A stretch of 63,961 nt of DNA, the filler included, from an uncultured Myxococcia bacterium (GTDB lineage: Bacteria; CAZTWC01), in assembly GCA_964617105.1 (NCBI GenBank). It is 7 parts of 7 records of this genome, joined end to end, with 100 filler letters (N's around TTAATTAATTAA, not from the genome) between each part and the next. Parts side by side here need not be neighbours in the genome. Positions count along the whole stretch, not along the records: positions 9,668 to 19,085 come from CAZTWC010000134.1; 6 more parts are not named here. One strand, written 5' to 3'. The notes under the pieces are model-generated. The model did not search any database and was not told the origin of the DNA. It saw only the letters and a list, made by a program, of their open reading frames with translations. The position numbers were made by a program, and so were the translations under genes. Shown here one piece after another: positions 6,584 to 60,000 of the stretch (position 1 is its first letter; each line of letters starts with the position of its first letter).

Positions 6584-8179
6584 ATGATACTTAACAAGCC
6601 ACACTATCTATTTTTACCCTTGATATTTTTCCTCTATTTTTATTCTTTTCCCTATTTTTCTGGGTTGAACAATCCCAACGAGAATTCAAGGGTTTACATG
6701 GTGAAGGCAGTAGTTGATCACGGAACCTTGGCTATAAATAAGGTTATTGAACAATGGGGTTGGATTAACGATCTCTCTTTTTTTCAGGGCAATTACTACG
6801 CCGCCAAAGCTCCGGGTGTGGCTCTGGCGGGAGTGCCAGTCTATTTTTTAGCCAAAAAAGTTGCATCTATATTTGATTTATCTATCAGCCATAGGGCTTT
6901 GGTGATCCTGCTGCGGATATCAATAATAATTATCCCCTCCCTGATCTTTATCACCCTTTTTTTCCGTTTTTTAGTAATGGAGATGAAACTGGATGGCCAG
7001 ACTTCACTGTTAGCAGTGCTGCTATATTCTTTGGGTACTATCTCGTTTACCTACAGCACCACTTATGTAAACCATTCTTTGGTATCTATTTTGATTTACA
7101 CCGCTTTTTGGGCAATTTTAAAGCAGAGATGGTTTTGGGCAGGTTTTGGGTGCGGTTTGGCCTTTTTGTGTGAATATCCAGCGATTTTAGCCGCCGGGAT
7201 ACTTGGCCTGTTTATAATCTCCAGACCAAGACCCTCTTTTGCAGAGATACTATCCAGGTCTTTTAAGTTTAGCCTGGGCTTTCTCCCTGGTTTGCTGGCA
7301 TTTTTTCTAATTAACTACCTGATGTTTAATAATTCTTTGTCAACCCCCTATTCACATTTGCATAATCCTTACCATGTTCACGTTCATTCCCAGGGCTTCT
7401 TTTCTCTAACCATTCCTGCCTGGGACAGATTTTTAGGGATCTGTTTTTCCTCTTTTCGGGGGATTTTCTTTATCTCACCGGCTTTGCTTTTCTTTTTACC
7501 AGGTCTTTGGGTGATGGCTAAAAATGGTAAAAAAAAGGAGGGTTGGCTCAGCCTGGTCATGGTGATGATATACTTTCTTTATAATTCCTCTCTGATCAAT
7601 TGGCAGGGAGGCTGGTCCACCGGCCCCCGCTATATTGTGCTGGTAATCCCCTGGATGGTGACTGCCATAGCTTTTTGGATCCAACCCAGGGCAATTCCGG
7701 CAATCCTGGCTCCGGCCAGATTTTTAGCCATATCATTATTACTCTCATCTATTTTGGTATCTATACTGCTTTGCACATGGTCAACTCTACATTTTCCTTT
7801 TTTTAGCCCCCAGATAAAAAATCCTTTTTATGACCTGTTGCTCCCCCTTTGGCAGCATGATCTTTTTCCTTTTTCTTTGGCTCATTTGCTGGGAATTAAA
7901 GGAACAGGGGCGACAGTGGCACCCATAATAGTTTTATTGATTATTTTTATTTTTATTGTAAGCCTGCCAATTATCCGCTTTTATCAATTTAACCGCAACC
8001 ATGGGCTGGAAAAAGAGAGGTCATCCTTTTTATTGGGAGGCAGCAAACTGGTATGGAGATTTATCGCCCTGATTTTAACCATCACATTTTTTGTTTTGCA
8101 CCTTTACGCCTACAGTCATATTTCCAGGGGCAAAGGTGGAGAAGAAACTGTTAGAATGATGAAATTGCCGGGATGGTAA
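6584..8179 (+). CDS. Polytopic membrane protein, GT-C/ArnT-PMT-like glycosyltransferase
   Basis: 531 aa with many TM segments; motifs NENSR, YAAKAPG, RGIFFISP, GGWSTGPRY. Confidence 0.6.
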   Translation: MILNKPHYLFLPLIFFLYFYSFPYFSGLNNPNENSRVYMVKAVVDHGTLAINKVIEQWGWINDLSFFQGNYYAAKAPGVALAGVPVYFLAKKVASIFDLSISHRALVILLRISIIIIPSLIFITLFFRFLVMEMKLDGQTSLLAVLLYSLGTISFTYSTTYVNHSLVSILIYTAFWAILKQRWFWAGFGCGLAFLCEYPAILAAGILGLFIISRPRPSFAEILSRSFKFSLGFLPGLLAFFLINYLMFNNSLSTPYSHLHNPYHVHVHSQGFFSLTIPAWDRFLGICFSSFRGIFFISPALLFFLPGLWVMAKNGKKKEGWLSLVMVMIYFLYNSSLINWQGGWSTGPRYIVLVIPWMVTAIAFWIQPRAIPAILAPARFLAISLLLSSILVSILLCTWSTLHFPFFSPQIKNPFYDLLLPLWQHDLFPFSLAHLLGIKGTGATVAPIIVLLIIFIFIVSLPIIRFYQFNRNHGLEKERSSFLLGGSKLVWRFIALILTITFFVLHLYAYSHISRGKGGEETVRMMKLPGW

Positions 8180-8896: not shown

Positions 8897-9567
8897 ATGA
8901 ACCTGGTCGGACATTATAAAAATATTTTAACTCTCTTAGCGATATTTTACCTGGCAATGCTGTTTTTGGGCACGCTACCATTATTTGCTGTGGAACCAGA
9001 GAAGAAAAACAGTAAAAAGGTTGACAAAATCAAATTGGCAGTATTGGATATTCAGCCCAACCGGGGAATTGAAAAATCAACCGCCTTTTTACTTTCCGAA
9101 TACTTGATCTCCGAGTTACAAAAGACTAAAAAATATGACGTTATCGGCAAAAATGACATCAAGCAGATGCTGCAGTTCGAGGAGCAACGGGAACTTTTAG
9201 ATTCTTGTCGCGATGATGGCTGCCTGATCCAGATTTCAGGAGCCCTGGGCGTTGATCAGTTAGCCGCTATGGTGGTAGGACGAATCGGCTCTACCCATCT
9301 GGTGGTGCTAAAGGTTATCGATGTTCGAAAGGCCAGGGTGCTGCAGAGGATTACCCGGCAGGCTGAAGATACGGAAGGAGCCATCCTGGCGGCTATAACT
9401 TCGGCTGTGCAAGAGGCGGCTGGATTCAATAAGGGTGGTTGGGAAAAAATGGTGGTTAAACCCCGTGATACCTGGCTCGGTTTCGGAATATTGGTGGGAC
9501 CGGCTATTAAACTGGGCTACCCGCAGCCAGAAGTTCGTATTTTACCCGACACCTGGGAAGAAGCTGA
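8897..9567 (+). CDS. Secreted protein with CsgG/TolB-N/DUF2380-like domain, 3'-partial
   Basis: Signal peptide; LAVLDIQ...C.DDGCLIQISGALGVD...VGRIG pattern; runs into linker. Confidence 0.55.
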
Positions 9568-9667
9568 NNNNNNNNNNNNNNNNNNNNNNNNNNNNNNNNN
9601 NNNNNNNNNNNTTAATTAATTAANNNNNNNNNNNNNNNNNNNNNNNNNNNNNNNNNNNNNNNNNNNN
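9568..9667. other. Artificial contig linker
   Basis: N44-TTAATTAATTAA-N44, with stops in all six frames. Confidence 0.98.
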
Positions 9668-10302
9668 TTGTGGCCGGAACCAATATCCAATATATTATGG
9701 GTACGGTATTGATAATAATTCCTTTTGCGGTGTTGTATATTTACAGTAATCCTTACCAGGTCAAGAGGATCCTGGGCTTCTTGTTTCCTGAATTATTTAA
9801 GTCCAATGTGGCGTATCAACTTTACCAGTCTTTAATCGCCATTGGTTCAGGGGGGTTATGGGGACAAGGGTTGGGTGACAGCAAACAGAAACTGTTTTTC
9901 CTGCCCGAAGCCCATACCGATTTTATCCTGGCTATTATAGCCGAAGAACTGGGTTTTATCGGACTGGTTGTTCTTTTTCTCCTGTTTCTATTTTTAATCT
10001 ACCGGGGATTTATTATCTCTCTTTCAGCCCGGGATAAGTTTCGGTTTTTTTTGGGAGTAGGGATAGTTTCCTGCCTCTCTTTACAGATTATCATCAACAT
10101 TGGCGTGGTTATGGGTATGTTGCCTACCAAGGGGCTTACTCTTCCATATATTAGTTATGGCGGTTCATCACTGTTAATAACCATGGCCATGAGTGGAATT
10201 ATGCTAAATATTTCTGAAGACCTATTTTTGAAATTACCAATTACTCCCGATGACACCAGAGTGGTTAGAAACCGGCGCAAGATGGCTGATTGCAAGTGGT
10301 AA
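9668..10302 (+). CDS. ftsW: Peptidoglycan glycosyltransferase FtsW, 5'-partial
   Basis: YQLYQSLIAIGSGG, FLPEAHTDFI, PTKGLTLPYISYGGSS; immediately upstream of murG. Confidence 0.93.
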
Positions 10303-10306
10303 ATAG

Positions 10307-11392
10307 ATGAGAATAAAAGTAATTATATGCGCCGGCAGTGTCAGCGGCAATATCTATCCGGCATTGGCTCTGGCCGATGAAGTGAAGACCAGGCATCCAG
10401 AGAACCAGGTTTTATTAATTGGGGGCAAAAACTTTCTGGAAGATAAAATATTCGGTACCAGTCCTTACCGGGAATTGTATCCCCATAAATTGCTGGAGAT
10501 GAAGTGGTGCAATCATTGCATTTTATGGTTGGTGGAGTTATTCATTCTGATTTTCAAAGCGGGTAAAATTTTTAAAGAGTTCAAACCAGACTTTGTAATT
10601 GGCACTGGTGGGCAAATTTCTCTGCCCGTAGTATTTGCCGCTATTTTGTACCGTATCAAAACAGCGGTTTTAGAAGTTAATGCCCGTCCTTCCAGGATAA
10701 ACCGGTGGCTGGGCTTTTTTACCAGTAAGGTGTTTTTCACTTTTGAACGATGTGCCAAGTTTTTTAAAACCAATAAAAGTGCCAATCTCGGCAACCCGGT
10801 GCGCACTGAAATTTTAACCAATTATTTAAAAAAACATCAAAAACACGATAAGTTTACTTTGCTGGTGTTAAGTTCCAATAAGTTACCGCGGCTATTTAAT
10901 GATCAAATATTAGCGGCTTTTTCCCACCTTAGTCAAGATTTGGCTGATAAATTGAAGGTTATTCACCAGTCTCCCTGCCAGAGCCAGATGAATATTGCCG
11001 GGATATACGAACAAATTGGTATTGAGGCAGAAACTGTAGACTATATAGAGGATATGGCAGATACCTATTGCCGGGCCGATTTGGTAGTTAGCCGGGCCGG
11101 GGCCACAACCGTGACTGAGTTAATGATATGTAAGCGATCGGCTATATTGATTCCTTCTCCTTTACCTGATGACTATCATGAGACTGAGAATGCCAGGGCG
11201 CTCACCAATTACCGGGCGGCTTATATGATCGAAAGCGAAGGTGCTGAGGAAACCGGAATAAAAATAGCCTTTTCGGTTAGAGAATTAGTTGAAAACCCTA
11301 AAAAATTAAAAGAGATGGAGTCGCGCTGCGGAATTTTAGGACGTCCTGAGGCAGCTAAAGAGATAATTGACTGTATGGTTGAAATGAGGTGA
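10307..11392 (+). CDS. murG: MurG-family GlcNAc transferase with degenerate motifs
   Basis: Lies between ftsW and murC; GNPVR and SRAGATTVTEL retained; GGTGGH, HEQN and GGS motifs altered (see findings). Confidence 0.85.
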   Translation: MRIKVIICAGSVSGNIYPALALADEVKTRHPENQVLLIGGKNFLEDKIFGTSPYRELYPHKLLEMKWCNHCILWLVELFILIFKAGKIFKEFKPDFVIGTGGQISLPVVFAAILYRIKTAVLEVNARPSRINRWLGFFTSKVFFTFERCAKFFKTNKSANLGNPVRTEILTNYLKKHQKHDKFTLLVLSSNKLPRLFNDQILAAFSHLSQDLADKLKVIHQSPCQSQMNIAGIYEQIGIEAETVDYIEDMADTYCRADLVVSRAGATTVTELMICKRSAILIPSPLPDDYHETENARALTNYRAAYMIESEGAEETGIKIAFSVRELVENPKKLKEMESRCGILGRPEAAKEIIDCMVEMR

Positions 11393-11459
11393 TGCTAAAA
11401 GTTGTTTTACTTGGGTAGATGATTATATCAGGGATTGACTTTTGGCAGGGGAATTATAG

Positions 11460-12875
11460 ATGTTTAGAGACAAACAGTATCGTATCCACTTTATCGGCAT
11501 TGGCGGTATAGGTATGAGCGGCATAGCCGAGTTGTTGCTCAACCTGGGTTACCAGGTGACCGGTTCCGATTTAAGCCATAGTGCCATAGTGGACCGGTTG
11601 CGCCGGTTGGGCGGGTCTATCTTTATCGGACACTCACCGGAAAATCTTGGTCAGGCTCAAGTGGTAGTGGTTTCTTCGGCGGTAAAGTCTGATAATGTAG
11701 AGGTGTTGGCAGCCAGAAATCGGAATATCCCCATTATTCAGCGGGCTGAGATGCTGGCGGAACTGATGCGGTTGAAATATGGAATCGTGGTAGCTGGTTC
11801 ACACGGCAAGACTACCACCACTTCTATGCTGGCTACTATTCTGGCGGAAGGCGGGGTTGACCCTACCTATGTGATTGGCGGGAAATTGAAAAGCGCCGGT
11901 AATAATGCCAAATTGGGCTCATCAGACATTCTGGTGGCTGAAGGGGACGAAAGTGACGGCTCTTTTGTCCGTCTATCTCCTACCTGGGCGGTAATTACCA
12001 ATATCGATCCAGAACACCTGGATCATTATGGAAGTCTTGAAAAACTAAAAGAAACTTTTGTGGAGTTTGCCAATAAAGTGCCTTTCTATGGTTTGGTGGT
12101 TTGTTGCCTGGATAGCCAGGATTTGCAGGGCATTATCCCTCAAATCCAAAAAAGGGTGAAAACCTATGGTTTAAGCAGCCAAGCCGATTATCAGGCTACA
12201 GATATCAGGCACTCCGGTTTTATCACCAAATTCAAGGTTCTCAAACAGGGAAGAGAGATCGGGGATATTGAACTCAACATGTCGGGTGAGCATAATGTAT
12301 TAAATGCCCTGGCCTGTATTGCCATCAGCGATGAGATGAATGTGTCTTTTGAGAATGCTGCCCGGGCGTTAAATCATTTTGGCGGAATAGAGCGGCGTTT
12401 TGAACACAAAGGCACGGTCAATGATATAATGGTTATTGATGACTATGGACACCATCCGGTCGAGATTATCGCAACTTTAAAGGCTGCTCAAGTTGCCAGA
12501 AATAGTAGTCAAGAAATCCAGAGGAAAGGGAGAATAGTCACGATTTTTCAGCCTCATCGTTACTCCCGAACTAAACTTTTGTTCGATGATTTCCTCTCCG
12601 CATTCAACAATACCGATCTGTTGGTTCTTACTGAAATTTATGGCGCTGGGGAAGAGAAAATAGAAGGAGTCTGTTCAAAAAAATTGTACCAGGGGATCAG
12701 AGAGTATGGGCATCGCAACCTATATTTTATAGAGGATAAAGAGCAGATTGCCAGCCAGGTGGTGGACCAGTTACAGCCGGGCGATCTGGTTTTAACGCTG
12801 GGGGCAGGGGATGTTCACCTGGTGGGTGGGCAATTGTTAAAACTGTTGGAAGAGAAACAAAGGGAACAAAAATGA
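11460..12875 (+). CDS. murC: UDP-N-acetylmuramate--L-alanine ligase
   Basis: HFIGIGGIGMSG, GSHGKTTTT, EGDESDGSF, DDYGHHP, FQPHRYSRT. Confidence 0.97.
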   Translation: MFRDKQYRIHFIGIGGIGMSGIAELLLNLGYQVTGSDLSHSAIVDRLRRLGGSIFIGHSPENLGQAQVVVVSSAVKSDNVEVLAARNRNIPIIQRAEMLAELMRLKYGIVVAGSHGKTTTTSMLATILAEGGVDPTYVIGGKLKSAGNNAKLGSSDILVAEGDESDGSFVRLSPTWAVITNIDPEHLDHYGSLEKLKETFVEFANKVPFYGLVVCCLDSQDLQGIIPQIQKRVKTYGLSSQADYQATDIRHSGFITKFKVLKQGREIGDIELNMSGEHNVLNALACIAISDEMNVSFENAARALNHFGGIERRFEHKGTVNDIMVIDDYGHHPVEIIATLKAAQVARNSSQEIQRKGRIVTIFQPHRYSRTKLLFDDFLSAFNNTDLLVLTEIYGAGEEKIEGVCSKKLYQGIREYGHRNLYFIEDKEQIASQVVDQLQPGDLVLTLGAGDVHLVGGQLLKLLEEKQREQK

Positions 12876-13807
12876 CCCTGGAAAGCATTTTGGAAAATTT
12901 GGATTCTATGGCAGCCAACTACTGCCTGCAGGAACCGATGAGTGTGCACACCACCTATAAGTTGGGAGGTCCGGCTGCTATTTTTATTAGTCCCAGGGAA
13001 GCAGAGGAGTTACAGGAGATATTAAGGCTACTCTTCTTAGAGAGGTCACCCTATTTCATTCTGGGTGCTGGTTCCAACCTTTTAGTAGCGGACAGAGGCT
13101 ATAGAGGCGCTATTTTATATTTTATGGAATATTTTACCGCTCTTTCGATTTTGGAAAAATCATCGGAAAAAGTGGTGATAGAGGTAGGGGCAGGGGTTAA
13201 AAACCGTGCTCTGCTTCAGTTTTGCCAGGAACATGGCATCAGCGGTGCGGAGTTTTTGACCGGTATCCCTGGCACTGCCGGTGGAGCGGTGGCTATGAAT
13301 GCGGGGACCCAATTGGGGCGAATGGAAGATATTCTGGTAGAAGTCCAGGTGCTGTCGGGAAACCGGTATGCACCAGCCTGGCAACCATCTAATTATTTCA
13401 AGTTCGATTATAGACGCACCACCCTGTCTCCCGGATCGGCAATAGCCAATATCCGGCTCAGGTTGCGCCCGGAGGATCCCAACCACATAGCGGAGATTAT
13501 TGATGCCCAGCAGCAAATTCGGGACAGCAAGTATCCTGATCAGCCTTCGGCAGGTTCGGTATTTTTAAATCCTCCTGGAAAATATGCCGGCCGTCTTATT
13601 CAGGAGGCGGGGTTGAAAGGGCACAGAATCGGTGGCGCTCAGGTGTCTCCCCAGCACGGTAATTTTTTGGTTAATCTACAGGATGATACCAGGGCAGAGG
13701 ATATCAAGGCTTTGATGGAGTTGGTGAGAAAAGAGGTAAAAGCAAAGTTTAATGTAGAACTGCAACCAGAAGTTAGGTTATTAGGGTTCACCGAAGGGTT
13801 TGAATAA
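12872..13807 (+). CDS. murB: UDP-N-acetylenolpyruvoylglucosamine reductase
   Basis: GAGSNLLV, GIPGTAGGAVAMNAG, PSAGSVFLNP, QHGNFLVN, LQPEV. Confidence 0.96.
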   Translation: MTLESILENLDSMAANYCLQEPMSVHTTYKLGGPAAIFISPREAEELQEILRLLFLERSPYFILGAGSNLLVADRGYRGAILYFMEYFTALSILEKSSEKVVIEVGAGVKNRALLQFCQEHGISGAEFLTGIPGTAGGAVAMNAGTQLGRMEDILVEVQVLSGNRYAPAWQPSNYFKFDYRRTTLSPGSAIANIRLRLRPEDPNHIAEIIDAQQQIRDSKYPDQPSAGSVFLNPPGKYAGRLIQEAGLKGHRIGGAQVSPQHGNFLVNLQDDTRAEDIKALMELVRKEVKAKFNVELQPEVRLLGFTEGFE

Positions 13808-14645
13808 ATTGAAAAAGAAACAGGTTAAAATTCAGGCAAATCGTAAAAAGGCTCCTAAGGTTCCTTTTTGGATAAAATATGGAGAAAAGGTAAAGCGATA
13901 TAGCCGAAAAGTTATTTTTATCAGTTGTTTAGGATTGGTTTTTTCCCTCTCTTTTTATTTAACCACCCGGATTAAATATTCCGAATTTTTTCTGGTAAGC
14001 CAGATGGAAGTGTATGGAAATCAAAGGGTGAAAAGCGAAGAAATAATAAACACCTTACCCTTTGGCAAGGGTGATAATCTGTTTCAGATAGATTTAGGTA
14101 CAGGAATTGATAACTTGCAAGAGATGAACTGGATCAAGACAGCGGAAATAAAAAAACGTTATCCCAATAAGATAATAGTGGTCATTGAAGAGCATAGGGC
14201 AGCCGGGGTAATAGAGTTGGACAGTTTATATCTTGTGGATGGAGAAGGAAAGATATTTAAGCGGGTAGAGGAAAATGAAGGAGATGGTTTGGCGCTAATA
14301 AAGGCCTGCACCGAGAGCGAGTTTGATAAGCAGAAAGAGATTTGCCGTCAATTGGTAGTCAAAGCGCTAGAGATAATCAAGAGTTATCAAGAGATGAATT
14401 TGCACCTTTTTCAACCAATTTCCAGAGTGATAGCGGATAAATTGACCGGTTATACTTTGGAGGTGGGTAAATTTAAGACTAGAATCCATTTGGGACTGGA
14501 TAGTAAACAAAGTACCAGAAAAAAGAAGTTGGACAGGTTGTCCAAATTGTTGACCGTTCTGGGAAAGAAGTCGGACAAGGTGGATTATATTTTTTTAGAC
14601 AATCAACGAAATCCAGAAATGGTCAGTTTGGCCTGGCGAAAATAG
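13800..14645 (+). CDS. ftsQ: Cell division protein FtsQ/DivIB
   Basis: Basic N-terminus, one TM segment, POTRA-like VYGNQRV...WIKTAEIKKRYPNKIIVVIEE; upstream of ftsA. Confidence 0.88.
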   Translation: MNKLKKKQVKIQANRKKAPKVPFWIKYGEKVKRYSRKVIFISCLGLVFSLSFYLTTRIKYSEFFLVSQMEVYGNQRVKSEEIINTLPFGKGDNLFQIDLGTGIDNLQEMNWIKTAEIKKRYPNKIIVVIEEHRAAGVIELDSLYLVDGEGKIFKRVEENEGDGLALIKACTESEFDKQKEICRQLVVKALEIIKSYQEMNLHLFQPISRVIADKLTGYTLEVGKFKTRIHLGLDSKQSTRKKKLDRLSKLLTVLGKKSDKVDYIFLDNQRNPEMVSLAWRK

Positions 14646-14699
14646 TGATAAATTTATAAAGCAGATAATTTTTTTTTTTTTAAAGGGGAGGAAAATTTG

Positions 14700-15941
14700 A
14701 TGAGTGATAATGATATTATTGTAGGCCTGGATATTGGCACCACAAAAGTTTGTGCCATTGTTGGGGAGAGGAATGCCAAGAACCAGGTGGATATCCTGGG
14801 GGTTGGCACTAGCCCGTCAGATGGTTTGAGATACGGTATGGTGATAAATGTCAATCAAACTATGGAATCTATTAAGGCAGCTATAGAAGAGGCGGAAATT
14901 ATGGCTGGGTGTGATATCCACCAGGTTTATATCGGTATCGCCGGAGGTCATATTAAGGGTTTTAATTCTCATGGTATGGTGATGATCAAAGATGGAGAGG
15001 TGAGTCAGGAGGATGTCAATCGGGTTATGGACCTGGCAGTGGCGGTAGGGATGCCGCCGGAAAGGCAAATTTTCCATACTATTCCGCAGGAATTTATGAT
15101 TGACCAGCAGACAGGCATTAAGGATCCTTTGGGTTTACGAGGCAATCGGTTAAGCGCTAAAGCTCATATTGTTACCGGTCAGGTTACCAGTACTGAAAAC
15201 ATGGTAAACTGCGCCAACAACTGTGGACTAAGCGTGGCCGATATTATTTTACAACCCTTAGCCTCGGCCGAGGCGGTGCTTTCCGAGGATGAGAAAGACC
15301 TGGGAGTGGCATTGGTGGATATTGGCGGCGGCACCACTGATATCGCTATTTTTTACTGCGGTAGTATTCAGCATACTGCTGTGATTACCAAAGGAGGCAA
15401 TGATATTACCCAGGAGATCTCAATTAGTTTGCGAACCTCCACTGCTGAGGCGGAAAAGATCAAACGGCAATATGGGTGTGCCTTAACCGACCTGGTTATT
15501 AAAGATGAGTTTTTGGATGTTCCAACCGTGGGCAAGCAAAAGTTGGTAAAGTGCTCAAGGAAATACTTAGCCGAGATCATTCAGCCCAGTTTGGAGGAGA
15601 TTTTCAATGCTGTTCACGAGCAGATTTTAAATAGCGGATTTGCCGATTTACTGACTTCCGGAGTGGTTATAACTGGTGGCAGCACTATGTTGGAGGGGAT
15701 GCCTCAGTTGTCGGAAAAAGTATTGGAGTTACAGACCCGGCGGGGGATACCCAATAAAGTTGATGGTTTATCCGATTTGGTTAGTTATCCGATCTATTCC
15801 ACCGGTGTGGGCCTGGTTCAATACGGTCTCTATAACCATTCTGCCTACCCGCCGATTCCATTGGGACGGCCGGTAACTGAAACTATAATTAACAGGCTGA
15901 AATCTTTTATCTCTTCTTGGGGAATATTTGGCCATAAATAA
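14700..15941 (+). CDS. ftsA: Cell division protein FtsA
   Basis: VGLDIGTTKVC, VDIGGGTTD, GVVITGGS, C-terminal amphipathic helix; GGAGG RBS before ATG 14700. Confidence 0.97.
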   Translation: MSDNDIIVGLDIGTTKVCAIVGERNAKNQVDILGVGTSPSDGLRYGMVINVNQTMESIKAAIEEAEIMAGCDIHQVYIGIAGGHIKGFNSHGMVMIKDGEVSQEDVNRVMDLAVAVGMPPERQIFHTIPQEFMIDQQTGIKDPLGLRGNRLSAKAHIVTGQVTSTENMVNCANNCGLSVADIILQPLASAEAVLSEDEKDLGVALVDIGGGTTDIAIFYCGSIQHTAVITKGGNDITQEISISLRTSTAEAEKIKRQYGCALTDLVIKDEFLDVPTVGKQKLVKCSRKYLAEIIQPSLEEIFNAVHEQILNSGFADLLTSGVVITGGSTMLEGMPQLSEKVLELQTRRGIPNKVDGLSDLVSYPIYSTGVGLVQYGLYNHSAYPPIPLGRPVTETIINRLKSFISSWGIFGHK

Positions 15942-16031
15942 AGTTCAAAACTAATAATTTTCTGGTTGAAAAAGCCGGGGGAGATTTTAACTAAGGGCCT
16001 GAGCGCCCTAGTCTTCATGGGGGAGGACAAC

Positions 16032-17261
16032 ATGATTGATTTTAATGATCAGGCAGAGGAACTATCAATAGTTATGGATCCACAGCAGACTCGAGAATTG
16101 GGAGCCCGCATCAAAGTAGTGGGTGCCGGTGGTGGTGGTGGCAATGCCATCAATACCATGATCGCATCCGGGGTTGAGCATGTCGATTTTATTGCCGCCA
16201 ATACCGATTGTCAGGCGTTGGATAAGAGTCTGGCTCCAGTAAAGATCCAGTTGGGTATGGAGTTGACCAGGGGATTGGGTGCCGGTGGAAAACCGGAAAT
16301 CGGTCGTAAAGCCGCAGAAGAGAGCAAGGATGATATTGCCGAATGCCTAGATGGGGCAGACATGGTTTTTATCGCTGCTGGAGAGGGTGGAGGTACGGGA
16401 ACTGGAGCAGCGCCGGTGATTGCGAAGACGGCAATGGACATGGGTTGCCTGACGGTGGGGATAGTAACCAAACCCTTTAATTTCGAGATGACCCGCCGTA
16501 AAAAACAGGCCGAGGCGGGAATAGAGGAGTTGCGCCGTAACGTAGATTCATTAATTACTATACCAAATCAAAAGCTTATATCTACAAGTGGCCCTTGCCC
16601 TACTTTAAAAGAGTCGTTTAAAATGGTTGACTATGTGTTGTTAAATGCGGTACAGTCAATTAGTGATATTATCAACAAACCAGGTATGATAAATGTAGAT
16701 TTTGCCGATGTAACCTCAATTATGAGGAGTAGCGGCATGGCCATCATGGGCGTAGGCAGGGCAAATGGGGCGGATCGGGCTTTAGAAGCGGCCCGGCAGG
16801 CTATCTCATCACCGCTGTTGGAAGATACTTCCATTACCGGGGCTACCGGTATTCTGATTAATTTCACTGCGGGCAGAGATTTGACTCCGATTGAATTAGA
16901 GGTTGCTACCCAATTGATCAGTGATATGGCTGATGATGATGTTAACCTGATTTTTGGGGTACTCGATGATGAAAAGATGGACGATGATTTACAATTGACT
17001 GTCATTGCAACCGGATTTGCCGATCACATGGAGGATACGGTTCATTATAAATCTGCCCGGCCCTCCATCGACTTTCATGACCCGTTGCCTAAAAGCGTAG
17101 TTGATATACATCGGGAATTCAGAAGAGGACAGAGAACCGAAGTGGAGATGATTAACAGCAATAAAAGTTTAGTCAATCCATCCGGTTTCGGTCAGTCGAG
17201 ATTTCTCAACCGGCGAGTGATTAGTGATGACGAAGCAGAGTTTCCAGTAAACGGATATTAA
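16032..17261 (+). CDS. ftsZ: Cell division protein FtsZ
   Basis: IKVVGAGGGGGNA, GGGTGTG tubulin motif, INVDFADV; GGAGG RBS favours ATG 16032 over the track's 15966. Confidence 0.97.
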   Translation: MIDFNDQAEELSIVMDPQQTRELGARIKVVGAGGGGGNAINTMIASGVEHVDFIAANTDCQALDKSLAPVKIQLGMELTRGLGAGGKPEIGRKAAEESKDDIAECLDGADMVFIAAGEGGGTGTGAAPVIAKTAMDMGCLTVGIVTKPFNFEMTRRKKQAEAGIEELRRNVDSLITIPNQKLISTSGPCPTLKESFKMVDYVLLNAVQSISDIINKPGMINVDFADVTSIMRSSGMAIMGVGRANGADRALEAARQAISSPLLEDTSITGATGILINFTAGRDLTPIELEVATQLISDMADDDVNLIFGVLDDEKMDDDLQLTVIATGFADHMEDTVHYKSARPSIDFHDPLPKSVVDIHREFRRGQRTEVEMINSNKSLVNPSGFGQSRFLNRRVISDDEAEFPVNGY

Positions 17262-17288
17262 TTACCGGGCAGGTTTTGGTGATTGGTT

Positions 17289-17903
17289 ATGAATATAGAG
17301 CGAATTGAGCAAGATTTTGTGCGTGGTAACCTTCTCTTTAGCGAAGGTGAAGAGGGCGATACCATGTATATTATCTTGGAAGGCAAGGTGCTGATCACTA
17401 AGAGTCTGGGTGAAACCACCAAGACTTTGGCAGTGCTGGAACCGGGAGATTTTTTTGGCGAAATGTCCCTTCTAACCGGCGAGACACGATCTGCCAATGC
17501 CATGGTTTCAGAAGATTCCCGTATGCTGGTGGTAGATCAGGAAGCCTTTTCTACCCTGGTTTCCACCAATGCCAAGATCGCCTGGAATATTATGACCCGG
17601 CTGGCCTACCGTTTGAGAGAGAGCCATATCCTACTCGACAATTTGCTTTTTGTTCATCCTCTTTGCCGGGTAGCCAATACCCTGTTAAAAGAGATAGAAG
17701 GGAGGGACTTTTTAGGTAAAGAACCATACGTAGAATTGGATATCCCCTCTATAGCCAGAAAAACCGGTCTGACAACTGAAAAAGTCAGGAGTTTGCTGAT
17801 AAAGTTAGATAAGGAAGAGATAATCAGCAAGGGAACCGACTGTTATTTTATCCACAAATCCGATGCCCTGCGAACCCTGTTTGGCATGCTCAGGGATAAT
17901 TAA
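17289..17903 (+). CDS. Crp/Fnr-family cNMP-binding regulator
   Basis: LFSEGEEGDTMYIILEGKV, GDFFGEMSLL, RSANA, C-terminal HTH-like segment; start could be 17283. Confidence 0.88.
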   Translation: MNIERIEQDFVRGNLLFSEGEEGDTMYIILEGKVLITKSLGETTKTLAVLEPGDFFGEMSLLTGETRSANAMVSEDSRMLVVDQEAFSTLVSTNAKIAWNIMTRLAYRLRESHILLDNLLFVHPLCRVANTLLKEIEGRDFLGKEPYVELDIPSIARKTGLTTEKVRSLLIKLDKEEIISKGTDCYFIHKSDALRTLFGMLRDN

Positions 17904-17945
17904 AAATGATTTCCCTGCCTACTCCCCTTATTAATCCTTAGAATT

Positions 17946-19085
17946 ATGATTCCGGTTTTGGTGGCTTATGCCAATAGTCCCCAAATAGGTATGGACAATT
18001 TGGGTCTGCAGATGGTTTATCGCCTGGCTCGCCAAACCAGTAATCTGGCAGTAGATACCTGGTTCTGGTCCGGCTTACCAGGAAAGAAAAGAACTTCTGG
18101 TCAAAGGCGGGGCACCTATATCCCGCAACGCCATCCCGCCTCTTTTTCACTTATTCTTTTCTCAATCTCTTATGAATTGGACTATACCAATATTTATTCT
18201 ATGCTGAAGGGAGCTGGTATAGAGCCTTTCAGTGATGATAGAGATGATAGGTCCCCATTGATAGTTGCCGGCGGTTTCAGTTTGATGATGAACCCGGAGC
18301 CGGTGGCCCCATTTTTCGATCTGGTGCTTATTGGAGAGGCAGAGGCCATGTTGCCGGGTTTTTTCAATAAATATAGAGAACTGGTAAGTAAAAAGCGGAA
18401 GATAGTTAAAGATGAATTGTCATCTCTGCCCGGTGTTTACATGCCTGGCAGGCTGTTGCCACGTTACAGTTCCTCCGGTATTTTTAAAGGTTTTAAAGGA
18501 GAAAGGGGAGGAAATTACCAGGTAAAGCGGCAATGGAGAGATGAATTGGGGCCAGAGGTCCCATCATGCTCTAATCTTTCCGGAGATAGGCATTTTGCCA
18601 GTTTTAACCTGGAGGTGGCTCGCGGTTGTCCCCAGGGGTGCCGTTTTTGCGCTGCCAGTTTTATCTATCGGCCTTTTCGGGTACATTCGTGCCAAAATAT
18701 AATCAATGAAACCAAAGAGGCGCCGTCCAATTGCCGGGTGGGATTGGTCTCATCAGCCCTTTTTGCCCATCCCGAAATTTCTCAGATTATATCTGGTTTG
18801 GCCGGGATGGGCCGGGGATTTACCCTTTCCTCCATGAGTTTGAATCACCCGGTGGAAAAAGTGTTGGCGCAAAGTCCTGTCAGGCAAAACACCATCAGCC
18901 TGGCGCCGGAAACCGGCAGCAGGCGTCTGGCTCGGGTGATTAACAAACCCTATTGCCTGGAAGAGTTACTCTCCCGTATTCAGGAAGTTTCCCGGCTGGG
19001 TGCCATCAATATCAAACTCTATCTGTTGGTGGGGTTGCCGGGAGAAATTTCTCAGGATATAGAGGATAATTGTCAAATGATTGCC
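17946..19085 (+). CDS. Radical SAM protein (B12-binding-like N-terminus), 3'-partial
   Basis: FSISYELD, NPEPVAPFFD, EVARGCPQGCRFC (CxxxCxxC), LAPETGS. Confidence 0.88.
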
Positions 19086-19185
19086 NNNNNNNNNNNNNNN
19101 NNNNNNNNNNNNNNNNNNNNNNNNNNNNNTTAATTAATTAANNNNNNNNNNNNNNNNNNNNNNNNNNNNNNNNNNNNNNNNNNNN
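19086..19185. other. Artificial contig linker
   Basis: N44-TTAATTAATTAA-N44. Confidence 0.98.
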
Positions 19186-28576: not shown

Positions 28577-28676
28577 NNNNNNNNNNNNNNNNNNNNNNNN
28601 NNNNNNNNNNNNNNNNNNNNTTAATTAATTAANNNNNNNNNNNNNNNNNNNNNNNNNNNNNNNNNNNNNNNNNNNN
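28577..28676. other. Artificial contig linker
   Basis: N44-TTAATTAATTAA-N44. Confidence 0.98.
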
Positions 28677-36023: not shown

Positions 36024-36088
36024 AAGATTCCCTTTCGGGAAATTAGTAAAAATGATACCCCAATTTCATTTGGTTTTGNNNNNNNNNN

Positions 36089-38041: not shown

Positions 38042-38141
38042 NNNNNNNNNNNNNNNNNNNNNNNNNNNNNNNNNNNNNNNNNNNNTTAATTAATTAANNN
38101 NNNNNNNNNNNNNNNNNNNNNNNNNNNNNNNNNNNNNNNNN
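38042..38141. other. Artificial contig linker
   Basis: N44-TTAATTAATTAA-N44. Confidence 0.98.
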
Positions 38142-47483: not shown

Positions 47484-47583
47484 NNNNNNNNNNNNNNNNN
47501 NNNNNNNNNNNNNNNNNNNNNNNNNNNTTAATTAATTAANNNNNNNNNNNNNNNNNNNNNNNNNNNNNNNNNNNNNNNNNNNN
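47484..47583. other. Artificial contig linker
   Basis: N44-TTAATTAATTAA-N44. Confidence 0.98.
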
Positions 47584-56918: not shown

Positions 56919-57018
56919 NNNNNNNNNNNNNNNNNNNNNNNNNNNNNNNNNNNNNNNNNNNNTTAATTAATTAANNNNNNNNNNNNNNNNNNNNNNNNNN
57001 NNNNNNNNNNNNNNNNNN
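56919..57018. other. Artificial contig linker
   Basis: N44-TTAATTAATTAA-N44. Confidence 0.98.
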
Positions 57019-60000
57019 GAGCATCAAAATATTGCCGAAGTTTGCGATGGCAAAGACAATGACTGTGACGGTGAAACTGATGAAGGTTGGTTAAACGCCT
57101 GCCAGGGCTGCGGTGATCTGCAAGGTGTGCCGGGTATGGCCTGTGACAGTGATGACAGCGACTTATGCGCCAATGGTTCCTGGACCTGTAAAAGCGACAA
57201 AACCGATGTGGAATGCATCAACGAAAGTCAGTTAAATATAACCGAGATCTGTGACGGAAAAGACAACGACTGTGACAAATATATTGACGAAGAGGTATTT
57301 AATAACTGCGGCGGCTGCGGAACCATGAAAGGTGAGCCTGGTGATACTTGCGACGGCTTTGACAGCGACCTGTGCGCCAATGGCACCTGGTCATGCATGA
57401 GTGACAAGAGTGATGTGGAATGTATCAATGAAGTTAAGACCGATATCCTCGAGATCTGCGACAACCTTGATAATGACTGCGATGGCCAGACCGATGAAGG
57501 CACCACCAATGCCTGCGGCGGCTGCGGCGACTTGACCGGCTCTCCCCAGGAGGTTTGTGACAGTGATGACAGCGACCTGTGCAAATATGGCACCTGGACC
57601 TGTAAATCTGATAAAAGTTCACTCCAGTGTCTCAACGAAGATCCCAGAGAGGTAAAGGAGATCTGCGACAGCAGTGATAATGATTGTGACGGCAGCACTG
57701 ATGAGGATTTTGATCTCTATAGGGATTCAAACCACTGCGGTGGTTGCAATCTCAGTTGTCCAAAAGCGGCCAATGCAGATGGAGAGTGCAAAGGGGGAAA
57801 ATGCTCTATAAAGTGCTGGGATGGATATTGGAACATTAATCAAAAAGAGGATGATGGTTGTGAATATCATTGTTTAGTCTCAAACCATGGAGAAGAGATC
57901 TGTGATGACAAAGACAATGACTGCAACGGCCAAATCGATGAAAAATGGACAAACAAGGGCAATAGTTGCGATGGCAATGATGTGGATAAATGCGCTACCG
58001 GCACCTATACCTGCTCTGCTGACGGAACAGACCTGGCCTGTAACAACGAGCAGGATCCTAACAAAAAAGAGATTTGTAATTCTCTAGATGATGACTGCGA
58101 TGGTGATACTGATGAAAACCTGGTTCCGCCCTTTTGTCAAAAGCAGTTGGGAGTTTGCAGCGGCAGCAGAAAAGAGTGCGGCAGCGATAAAGGATGGTTG
58201 AGTTGCGCCGGAACCGCCTCTTATGGAGCATTCTATGAGGAGCAGGAAACCAAGTGTGATGGGCTGGACAATGACTGCAACGGCGTTGCTGACAAGGGAT
58301 GTGCCTGCACGATAGATGCAGAGAGGGTGTGCGGTAAAAATCTTGGTATCTGCAAAATGGGGACACAGGTGTGTGGCACAGACGGCACCTGGGGACCATG
58401 TATAGATGGACAGGGTCCAGAAGAAGAAATTTGCGATGGTAAAGATAACAACTGCAACGGACTGACGGACGATGGATTTGATCTGGCCAGTTCTCCACTC
58501 AACTGTGGAGTATGTCAGAATAATTGCCCTGCCTACACCAACGGAAAGGCGGTTTGCCAAGACGGCCAATGCGGTGTGGTTTGCCAGGAGGGATTTTTCA
58601 ACCTCAATGGCAATGATGACGATGGCTGCGAATACCATTGCAGCATTAGCCAGCAGAGTAATGAAATTTGTGATGGCAAGGATAATAATTGTGACGGCCG
58701 GACCGATGAGAAGACCGATTTTCTCAACGATCCTGGTAACTGCGGCCAATGCGACAACCATTGCCGGTTTGACAACAGTCTGGCCAAATGCAGCAATGGA
58801 CTTTGTATCCTGGATGAATGCCTGGATGGATATTTCAATATCAACAAAACCAAACAGGATGGCTGCGAGTATCAATGCCAAATCCTGAACAGTGGAGTGG
58901 AATACTGTGACCAGATAGACAACAATTGCGACGGTTTTGTGGATGAAAACTGCCTCCAGTGTAGAGATGGTGAGCGGCAAGATTGCTATACCGGCCCGGN
59001 NNNNNNNNNAAGATATTGGGGCCTGCAAGGGAGGTGAACAGGTTTGTATCCAGGGTAAATGGGATCTGTGCCAGGGGGGAGAGCAGGTTCCGGAAGATGA
59101 AACCTGTGACGAAGCGGACAACGACTGTGACGGTCAAACCGATGAAGAGTTGCAACCATTGCATTGCGGTCTGGGAGAGTGCCGGGTAAAGGTGGAAGCC
59201 TGTATTCAGGGCAAACTTCAGCCCTGTATCCCCAATAAACCGCCACGGCAAAACGAACTGTGCGATCATAAGGATAACAACTGTGATGGAAAAACCGATG
59301 AAGGTTTTAACATCGGAAAAGAGTGCACAGCCCTGGGTGAATGTGGTCTGGGAAAAATTGAGTGTGAAATCCAGGGTGGGATCACCACCGTCTGTTCCAC
59401 AGCACCCGGTGCAACTCAATCCAAAGCCGAAAAAGAGATCTGTGACCAAAAAGATAATAACTGTGACGGAGAAACCGATGAAAAACTAACCGGATGCGGC
59501 TTGTGTGGAGTTAAAGAGGTTTGCGGCGATGGCAAAGACAATGATTGTAACGGTAGTGTGGATGAGGGTTGCCAATGCAAACCAGGAGAGGAAATAAAAT
59601 GTGGTGATCTGCAACTTTCCGGTATTGGTGAATGCCAGGCTGGATTGCAGAAATGTAATTCAGAGGGAAAATGGCAGGATTGTCAAGGCGAAAAGAAACC
59701 CATAATTGAAAAATGCGACCTCAAGGACAACGATTGCGATGGCTTGACTGACGAAGAGATTCAGGATGCCGGCGATAGTTGCGGCCAAAAAGAGGGGCTA
59801 TGCCAAATGGGAAAAATCGCCTGTGCAAAGGGAAAACTGGTCTGTCAAGATACGGTTGAACCGGTAGAAGAGGAGTGTGGTGATAAGTTGGATAACAATT
59901 GCGATGGTAAAACCGATGAGGATTGCGATGATTCGACGGTTAAGAAGAATTTGGATAAAAAGGGCGGCGTGGTCAACGGTCCAAAAGGTTCCAGGGTGAT

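Follow-up and report, generated by a model that had tools for sequence, protein, structure and literature searches.

The gene examined here, which we call murG*, lies at 10307..11392 on the plus strand of the window, by which we mean the whole 63,961-nucleotide stretch of DNA that was analysed. The window is a chain of contigs (C133 onward, in order of length) from one metagenome-assembled genome (MAG) of an uncultured Myxococcia bacterium (GCA_964617105.1, hereafter G000), joined by linkers made of 44 N, TTAATTAATTAA and another 44 N; genes on opposite sides of a linker are not neighbours in the organism. On contig C134, which occupies window positions 9668-19085, murG* stands between ftsW and murC, the canonical place of murG within the dcw (division and cell wall) cluster. 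As judged from its open reading frame (ORF), domains, alignments and predicted fold, it encodes a full-length, short-type homologue of the lipid II synthase MurG in which invariant residues have been ablated.

murG* comprises 361 codons in an open frame with no frameshift, and because an in-frame TAG stands immediately 5' of its ATG, the N-terminus is fixed and cannot be extended. Both domains of glycosyltransferase family 28 (GT28) were recognized by Pfam in the 361-amino-acid product (PF03033, 6.8e-17; PF04101, 1.6e-21), in agreement with the preliminary description of this DNA, which had judged the ORF to be full length. The NCBIfam murG model TIGR01133 matched murG* over its whole length with 203.4 bits, below the equivalog cut-off of 250.25, a weak criterion given that a motif-complete long MurG of the same genome, described below, scored 209.9 bits and that 5 of 14 control genomes also fell below the cut-off.

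Residues lost and kept in murG*

We aligned murG* with the solved MurG structures, 24 close matches and 261 full-length homologues; unless stated otherwise, the counts given below refer to these 261. With canonical MurG (Enzyme Commission number EC 2.4.1.227, GT28; E. coli 1F0K/1NLM, P. aeruginosa 3S2U, A. baumannii 7D1I), murG* shares the predicted GT-B fold, the GT28 domains, the length and the ftsW-murC position, as well as the GNPVR, RAGAxxxxE and H..NA motifs. On the other hand, it is without the essential His, the GGxGG, GGY and GGS loops and the invariant Gln, and another MurG is encoded in its genome.

In the first glycine loop (G-loop 1, residues 9-15, 10331..10351; this and all other motifs lie on the plus strand), AGSVSGN replaces GGGTGGH. 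The essential His of GGxGGH has become Asn15 (His in 257 homologues, Asn in none), and three more positions of the loop are altered. In G-loop 2 (residues 101-105, 10607..10621), GGQIS replaces GGYxS; Tyr is found at the changed position in 247 homologues, Tyr or Phe in 256 and Gln in one. The donor-side GGS loop (G-loop 3, residues 189-194, 10871..10888) reads SSNKLP in place of GGSxGA, with all five of its five conserved columns altered, although Gly, Gly, Ser and Gly are each present in 258-260 homologues. Similarly, HQTG has become HQSP, and the HQxxNA motif reads HETENA (residues 291-296, 11177..11194), which keeps His291, Asn295 and Ala296 and puts Glu in place of Gln292, a residue found in 261 of 261 homologues. 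The HEQN loop (residues 122-125, 10670..10681) reads LEVN, with Glu123 and Asn125 kept and the Gln replaced by Val (Gln in 233 homologues, Val in two). Two motifs are retained, namely GNPVR (10790..10804) and RAGATTVTE (residues 263-271, 11093..11119), the donor-binding alpha/beta/alpha motif, in which Arg263, Gly265, Ala266 and Glu271 are all in place.

Much of this had been read from the DNA in the preliminary description. The alignments contain each of the substitutions that it listed for the GGTGGH, GGYVS, GGS and HQ/QQxxNA motifs, and they confirm that GNPVR and RAGATTVTE are retained. Its account of HEQN held in part: the Gln is lost, as described, but a Leu in first position is nothing unusual (found in 51 homologues, with His in 110).

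MurG in which Ala takes the place of the conserved His is reported to show no detectable activity and to fail in complementing a temperature-sensitive mutant (PMC8993221, with reference to Hu 2003 and Crouvoisier 2007; see also PMC5039524). According to PMC8993221, the two glycine loops of the N-terminal part have been proposed to hold the acceptor lipid by its diphosphate. PMC5039524 locates the His with the bound donor on one side of it and the proposed site for lipid I on the other, and PMC8256705 describes the GGS loop as essential for donor binding and HEQN as critical for lipid I.

Among the 40 columns conserved in at least 90% of the homologues, 13 are altered in murG*. The homologues themselves have a median of 1 altered column, with 4 at the 95th percentile and 8 at most, and their highest values come from sequences that start after G-loop 1 (P0249, P0372, P0044 and P0019). 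The substitutions His15Asn, Ser191Asn and Gln292Glu were found in none of the 261. The altered columns concentrate in G-loops 1 and 3 (9 of 11, versus 4 of 29 elsewhere; Fisher p = 1.1e-4, for a grouping picked post hoc). Furthermore, when five motif patterns were scored in the 268 nearest homologues, 212 lacked none, 50 lacked one, four lacked two and one lacked three, and all five were missing only in the cluster to which murG* itself belongs. Single motifs drift in other MurG homologues as well (EQN, the GGS loop, GGY or the first glycines, in P0299, P0378, P0360, P0061 and P0334), and the essential His is kept in all five of these.

Logan contigs from four runs of two studies, aligned with murG*, showed no differing letter within the gene. 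The pieces at 9974-10511, 10216-10385 and 10652-11839 span G-loop 1, LEVN, the SSN loop and HE..NA; the GGQ codons (10607-10621) lie outside the listed pieces, and one of the runs may be the source sample of the MAG itself. Assembly error, for which the preliminary description had called for a check by reads, was rejected: the assemblies of other runs carry identical bases, the independent assemblies are concordant, and 13 coordinated amino acid changes in an open frame are unlike base errors. Eight runs from two studies (marine and seawater metagenomes) contain the murG* stretch; two of them look like one data set deposited twice, and none is RNA. In murC, contigs of runs X3 and X5 carry 11519 C>T and 11747 T>C, and several of these contigs differ widely and may represent the murC of other organisms.

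The neighbours of murG* on C134 are all on the plus strand. The C-terminal 210 codons of ftsW (9670..10302; PF01098, 5.3e-66; TIGR02614 positions 173-355) are truncated by the contig start, and the ftsW stop lies 4 nucleotides 5' of the murG* start. The N-terminal part of ftsW was found at positions 3-557 of contig C108; the two halves span model positions 3-158 and 173-355, with about 15 positions unassembled. Downstream of murG* follow murC (11460..12875), which has three Mur ligase domains and a mean identity to its orthologues of 50%, comparable with that of other lineages, and murB (12872..13807; PF02873, PF01565). Both are intact, with full sets of domains, and their motifs had looked intact in the preliminary description. 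The dcw fragment on C134 ends with an ftsQ-like ORF, ftsA and ftsZ (13800..17261), identified as ORFs and by BLAST matches to dcw orthologues elsewhere. A scan of 9668-13000 returned 11 promoter-like and 7 terminator-like sites, compared with 6.3 and 3.6 in shuffles, and no site of either kind was tellingly placed between genes. murG* is probably co-translated with ftsW and murC.

The second, long MurG and its mraY

A whole-genome family search returned a second MurG of 685 amino acids, encoded at positions 1850-3907 of contig C30 of G000. This long MurG bears every canonical motif and is altered at 3 of the 40 conserved columns, in each case conservatively. Its C-terminal tail of ~270 amino acids, for which Pfam gave no significant match, can be aligned from end to end with 20 long forms, and HEAT families are recorded in some long MurG homologues. 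Along its full length, the protein is 35-56% identical to the ~120 matches listed, and the family measures 650-700 residues; other members are fused to MurJ and reach ~1160 amino acids.

Directly downstream of the long murG lies mraY, which scored 232.1 bits against a TIGR00445 cut-off of 192.05 and is the only gene of the genome to pass it; the other Glycos_transf_4 match of G000 is WecA-like. The two genes, long murG and then mraY (C30, 1850-5085), lie downstream of a divergently transcribed rho. A second murG somewhere in this genome had been predicted in the preliminary description, and it was found in the form of this motif-complete, 685-amino-acid protein, encoded directly upstream of the sole true mraY. 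Very likely, the long MurG makes lipid II together with MraY. A literature search on dcw, murG, mraY, Acidobacteria and MurG-MurJ fusion returned no paper on the long form by titles and abstracts, and supplements might list such gene orders; the long form goes unmentioned in passages of PMC8871954 and PMC10214165.

How does this arrangement compare with the gene order of other genomes? The upstream half of the G000 dcw cluster, on contig C108, carries rsmH, ftsI, murE, murF, murD and the start of ftsW; murF and murD abut and leave no space between them for mraY. In genomes with a classical short murG, mraY and murG both lie in dcw (14 of 14). In the long-form loci, long murG is directly followed by mraY outside any dcw cluster in 11 of 12 cases, and the twelfth locus ends too soon; the loci belong to Acidobacteriota, Thermoanaerobaculia, Gemmatimonadota, Myxococcota, Syntrophobacterales and two other phyla. 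Ten of 10 and 3 of 3 long-form genomes had no full-length MurG other than the long form. Where murC could be located in long-form genomes, it directly followed ftsW in a dcw cluster without murG and without mraY in six of seven, and in the seventh murC stood alone. The order in such clusters was ftsI-murE-murF-(murD)-ftsW-murC-...-ftsA-ftsZ (loci L138 and L140-L144), with no murD detected in the dcw cluster of loci L141 and L143. In one Acidobacteriota MAG (L053, 5986-7172), the mraY that follows the long murG is split over two frames, by a frameshift or an assembly error.

Because mraY is gone from the dcw cluster of G000 and yet murG is present there, this cluster can be described as a long-form layout with a leftover short murG. 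The second MurG of G000 is a member of the HEAT-tailed long type that stands before mraY and is sometimes fused to MurJ. In the other genomes examined, this module occurs alone and the dcw cluster is without murG, whereas G000 keeps the short dcw gene.

A search for a second MurG covered 234 genomes beside G000, and the combination of a long and a short MurG was found in none of them. No second MurG was present in 40 diverse genomes (one weak partial match, E 9.3e-7), in three genomes from a single long-form phylum (one of which is also among the 40), in four genomes of another long-form phylum, or in 10 long-form genomes (one weak partial match, E 2.2e-9). Among 101 Acidobacteriota, 100 had a match and none had two whole loci; two had one gene split over contig ends, and without G075 and G100, two genomes flagged as unpublished that have one match each, the tally is 0 of 99. 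Among 81 Desulfobacterota, a single genome, G188, had two full-length MurG-family loci. It was considered as a parallel case and rejected, its dcw copy being canonical and its second copy keeping the His and the glycine loops behind an extra N-terminal region. The second gene of G188 (L146, 6245-8119) lies outside dcw, and ~230 residues precede its MurG part in an open frame. We take this N-terminal region to resemble a bacterial sugar transferase, and the gene may encode a MurG-like enzyme of a polysaccharide pathway. G000 was the sole genome of its phylum in the collection compared, and the 40 nearest available genomes are its kin at the domain level only.

A maximum-likelihood tree of 61 sequences united the long forms in one clade (support 100), inside which the long MurG of G000 lay on an ordinary end branch of 0.36. 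murG* branched within the group of short MurGs, 14 of which formed its sister (support 92), and its end branch was the longest in the tree (1.21, compared with a median of 0.31). From this placement, the two murG genes of G000 are ancient, distinct types and not the products of a recent duplication, and it is more parsimonious to suppose that the short gene was retained where murG canonically lies than that it was re-inserted there.

Could murG* still be a working lipid II synthase, with the long MurG as a redundant or specialized second enzyme? Its canonical dcw position would be in keeping with this, and there is a documented case of one genome with two active MurG homologues, that of Kitasatospora viridifaciens, where MglA, a second homologue outside dcw, can supply lipid II (PMC8092295). 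As described there, that system resembles G000 in combining a dcw MurG with a distant homologue elsewhere in the genome. However, the Kitasatospora dcw copy is canonical and the better of the two, and both are active, whereas in G000 the copy outside dcw bears the canonical motifs and the dcw copy is degenerate. Moreover, the His is reported to be necessary for activity and complementation, six more positions that are invariant or nearly so among the 261 homologues are altered in murG*, and mraY has left dcw and adjoins the long MurG. We consider it very improbable that murG* still makes lipid II.

The two MurG genes might also come from two organisms merged in one bin. The MAG consists of 4.07 Mb in 489 contigs and is 96.5% complete, with an estimated contamination of 3.35%, and the two genes lie on different contigs. 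On the other hand, the bin holds a single dcw set and a single true mraY, and its dcw contig C108 is without mraY, a state found here only in long-form lineages. Ranked by tetranucleotide distance to the bin mean among 167 contigs, C30, C108 and C134 take places 15, 61 and 123, so that none is an outlier, and MurC and the long MurG both match best to Acidobacteriota-like sequences. An organism with this dcw cluster would in any case need mraY and a working MurG elsewhere, and a merger of two organisms is hardly credible.

The linkers occupy window positions 9568-9667, 19086-19185, 28577-28676, 38042-38141, 47484-47583 and 56919-57018, and two runs of 10 N, at 36079-36088 and 59000-59009, resemble scaffold gaps. 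Two ORFs on the plus strand gave no Pfam match at E up to 0.01. One (6584-8179, 531 amino acids) has the appearance of a hydrophobic multi-pass membrane protein, and the other (8897-9619, 240 amino acids) reaches the contig end.

Predicted fold, constraint and isolation of murG*

AlphaFold2 predicted a complete GT-B fold for murG*, with a mean predicted local distance difference test (pLDDT) of 93.7 and a predicted template modelling score (pTM) of 0.92. The best Foldseek matches to the model were the MurG structures 3s2u, 1f0k, 1nlm and 7d1i, with template modelling (TM) scores of 0.79-0.90. Residues 66-93 (10502..10585, plus strand) contain a long helix (71-92 in the model) with a strongly hydrophobic run of 12 residues flanked by Lys, the putative counterpart of the membrane-facing helix of MurG. 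The best 12-residue Kyte-Doolittle mean of this region is 2.84, a value matched by one of the 261 homologues, and by analogy with MurG the helix would be the membrane-facing region of murG*.

Alignment columns were binned by their conservation among the 261 homologues. From the most to the least conserved class, the mismatch of murG* to the consensus was 32, 30, 45, 65 and 79%, compared with medians of 2, 22, 41, 59 and 78% and maxima of 18, 42, 66, 80 and 90% for other MurGs. Only the invariant class is aberrant in murG*, and the usual gradient of constraint is seen elsewhere. Furthermore, the ratio of similarity to orthologues over similarity among orthologues (11-13 genomes) was 1.02 for MurC, 1.00 for MurB, 0.98 for FtsW and 0.84 for MurG. 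Because the ratios of MurC, MurB and FtsW are near 1, the G000 lineage is not fast-evolving in general.

These measurements bear on whether murG* has no function and stands at an early stage of decay, redundant beside the long MurG and MraY, with its frame still open because little time has elapsed or because of translational coupling from ftsW to murC. murG is already gone from dcw in six of six other long-form clusters, loss being the usual outcome, the longest end branch of the tree belongs to murG*, and nothing in population or expression data speaks for a function. On the other hand, 361 codons have remained open with no frameshift, apart from the invariant columns, murG* has diverged to an extent also seen in working MurGs, and the damage is centred on the active-site loops and not evenly spread. 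The fold is also predicted as confidently as for a normal enzyme, and the hydrophobic, membrane-facing helix is kept. Such a pattern is more in keeping with a non-catalytic paralogue that has been retained than with a gene in decay, and we consider decay quite unlikely. The neighbour ratios, the class pattern, the concentration of changes in G-loops 1 and 3, the fold and the helix, read from one sequence, together favour a protein that is still made and folded and whose active site has been selectively dismantled.

An exhaustive HMMER search of 1.84 billion representatives returned no sequence closer to murG* than 42% identity outside its own cluster, and a word-based search of 5.8 billion proteins returned none closer than 40%. 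The nearest matches bear canonical motifs. The 90% cluster of murG* has four public members, one of them a 150-amino-acid fragment, with one differing residue (V108I), and a metagenome scan for close relatives gave 301 pattern matches and no relatives. The ratio of nonsynonymous to synonymous substitution rates (dN/dS) was not computable because the nearest relative stands at 42% identity, the cluster members are near-identical and the runs carry no variants in the gene.

Could murG* be an active glycosyltransferase of new specificity? Such an enzyme would use another UDP-sugar and an acceptor other than lipid I, with a base such as Glu123; Gln292Glu and the remodelled GGS loop would alter contacts to the sugar or phosphate, and the remodelled N-domain would take the new acceptor. 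The retention of Arg263, Gly265, Ala266, Glu271, His291, Asn295 and GNPVR goes beyond the apparent need of a scaffold, and both fold and cleft are predicted with high confidence. GT28 homologues with a replaced His do exist: in the archaeal MurG-like proteins of pseudomurein producers, His is Asp and Glu is Leu, which has been proposed to fit another acceptor (PMC8993221). murG* resembles these proteins, as that source presents them, in that the His of GGxGGH is replaced, but theirs is an Asp, a possible base, in a conserved family, whereas murG* has Asn, has lost the glycine loops and stands alone. Moreover, Asn is unable to serve as a general base, and both phosphate-binding glycine loops have been lost together (9 of 11 columns). 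The dcw order is otherwise standard, with no neighbour that hints at a new pathway, and there is no family of similar proteins, which would be expected of a successful new enzyme. A new specificity thus seems unlikely to us. The preliminary description had offered altered specificity and unusual lipid II chemistry as one explanation; such chemistry is not needed because a canonical MurG is present in the genome, and what stands of the proposal is a minor alternative, in that most UDP-binding residues of the C-domain survive.

A possible role for murG* without catalysis

Could a MurG that no longer catalyses be held in its gene cluster by another task? On balance, the sequences lead us to regard murG* as a retained, non-catalytic MurG, that is, a pseudoenzyme, which perhaps acts as a scaffold. 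As expected of a pseudoenzyme, catalytic and substrate-binding residues are lost within an intact predicted fold, and a motif-complete paralogue is encoded in the same MAG. The preliminary description had proposed a pseudoenzyme or scaffold accompanied by a second murG, and the proposal gains support from the second gene, the confidently predicted fold and the normal divergence outside the invariant columns; loss of catalysis, selection for retention and a scaffold role are what we infer from these comparisons. By titles and abstracts, a literature search on MurG as a pseudoenzyme returned no paper on a catalytically dead MurG.

In the course of events that we envisage, murG* would be the original short, dcw-type MurG of the lineage, which stayed at its ancestral site between ftsW and murC. 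The synthesis of lipid I and lipid II would have passed to a separate operon, in which the HEAT-tailed long MurG is followed by MraY (contig C30). Freed from catalysis, murG* would have lost the GGxGGH His, the G loops on the acceptor side, the GGS loop on the donor side and the invariant Gln, and its GT-B fold, membrane-facing helix and most other conserved positions would have stayed constrained. It is plausible that murG* was kept for a structural role shared with classical MurG, such as the tethering of Mur ligases or divisome proteins at the membrane.

MurG is reported to interact with MurE-MurF at micromolar affinity and to oligomerise, it may scaffold the Mur ligases, and MurG-MurC fusions exist (PMC6420597; PMC10214165). 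For murG* and the MraY of its own genome, a single run of complex prediction, with alignments for both proteins, gave no answer on binding (score 0.00, mark 0.32). Non-catalytic paralogues with a GT-B fold can assist an active glycosyltransferase, as streptococcal GtfB does with GtfA. A GT-B fold without catalytic residues is common to GtfB and murG*, but murG* is not known to have a partner or a helper activity.

Several points weigh against a retained, non-catalytic scaffold. Most UDP-binding residues of the C-domain are retained and would be superfluous for an inert scaffold, Glu123 is situated close to the lost His and might in principle serve as a base, and the partner of the scaffold remains hypothetical. 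Selection on murG* is not directly evidenced, as the argument from constraint sets one sequence against distant homologues, and a gene released recently from constraint could look like murG*. The long end branch of murG* would in part reflect an isolated lineage. Finally, in a MAG of 489 contigs with 3.35% contamination, the co-residence of the two MurGs rests on binning, on composition and on there being no other mraY.

More tentatively, murG* might be a natural separation-of-function MurG, selected for a non-catalytic job at the membrane in which it recruits Mur ligases or divisome proteins, and the genome a living intermediate in the departure of lipid I and lipid II synthesis from dcw to the operon of HEAT-tailed MurG and MraY. 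If this is true, the scaffold role long proposed for MurG exists apart from catalysis and can hold the gene in dcw. For this organism, the name of lipid II synthase that annotation pipelines would give to murG* is probably mistaken. Should the dead copy have a function, it would constitute a natural experiment that separates the scaffolding of MurG from its chemistry, and the arrangement in G000 is a likely intermediate in how several phyla reached dcw clusters without murG and mraY.

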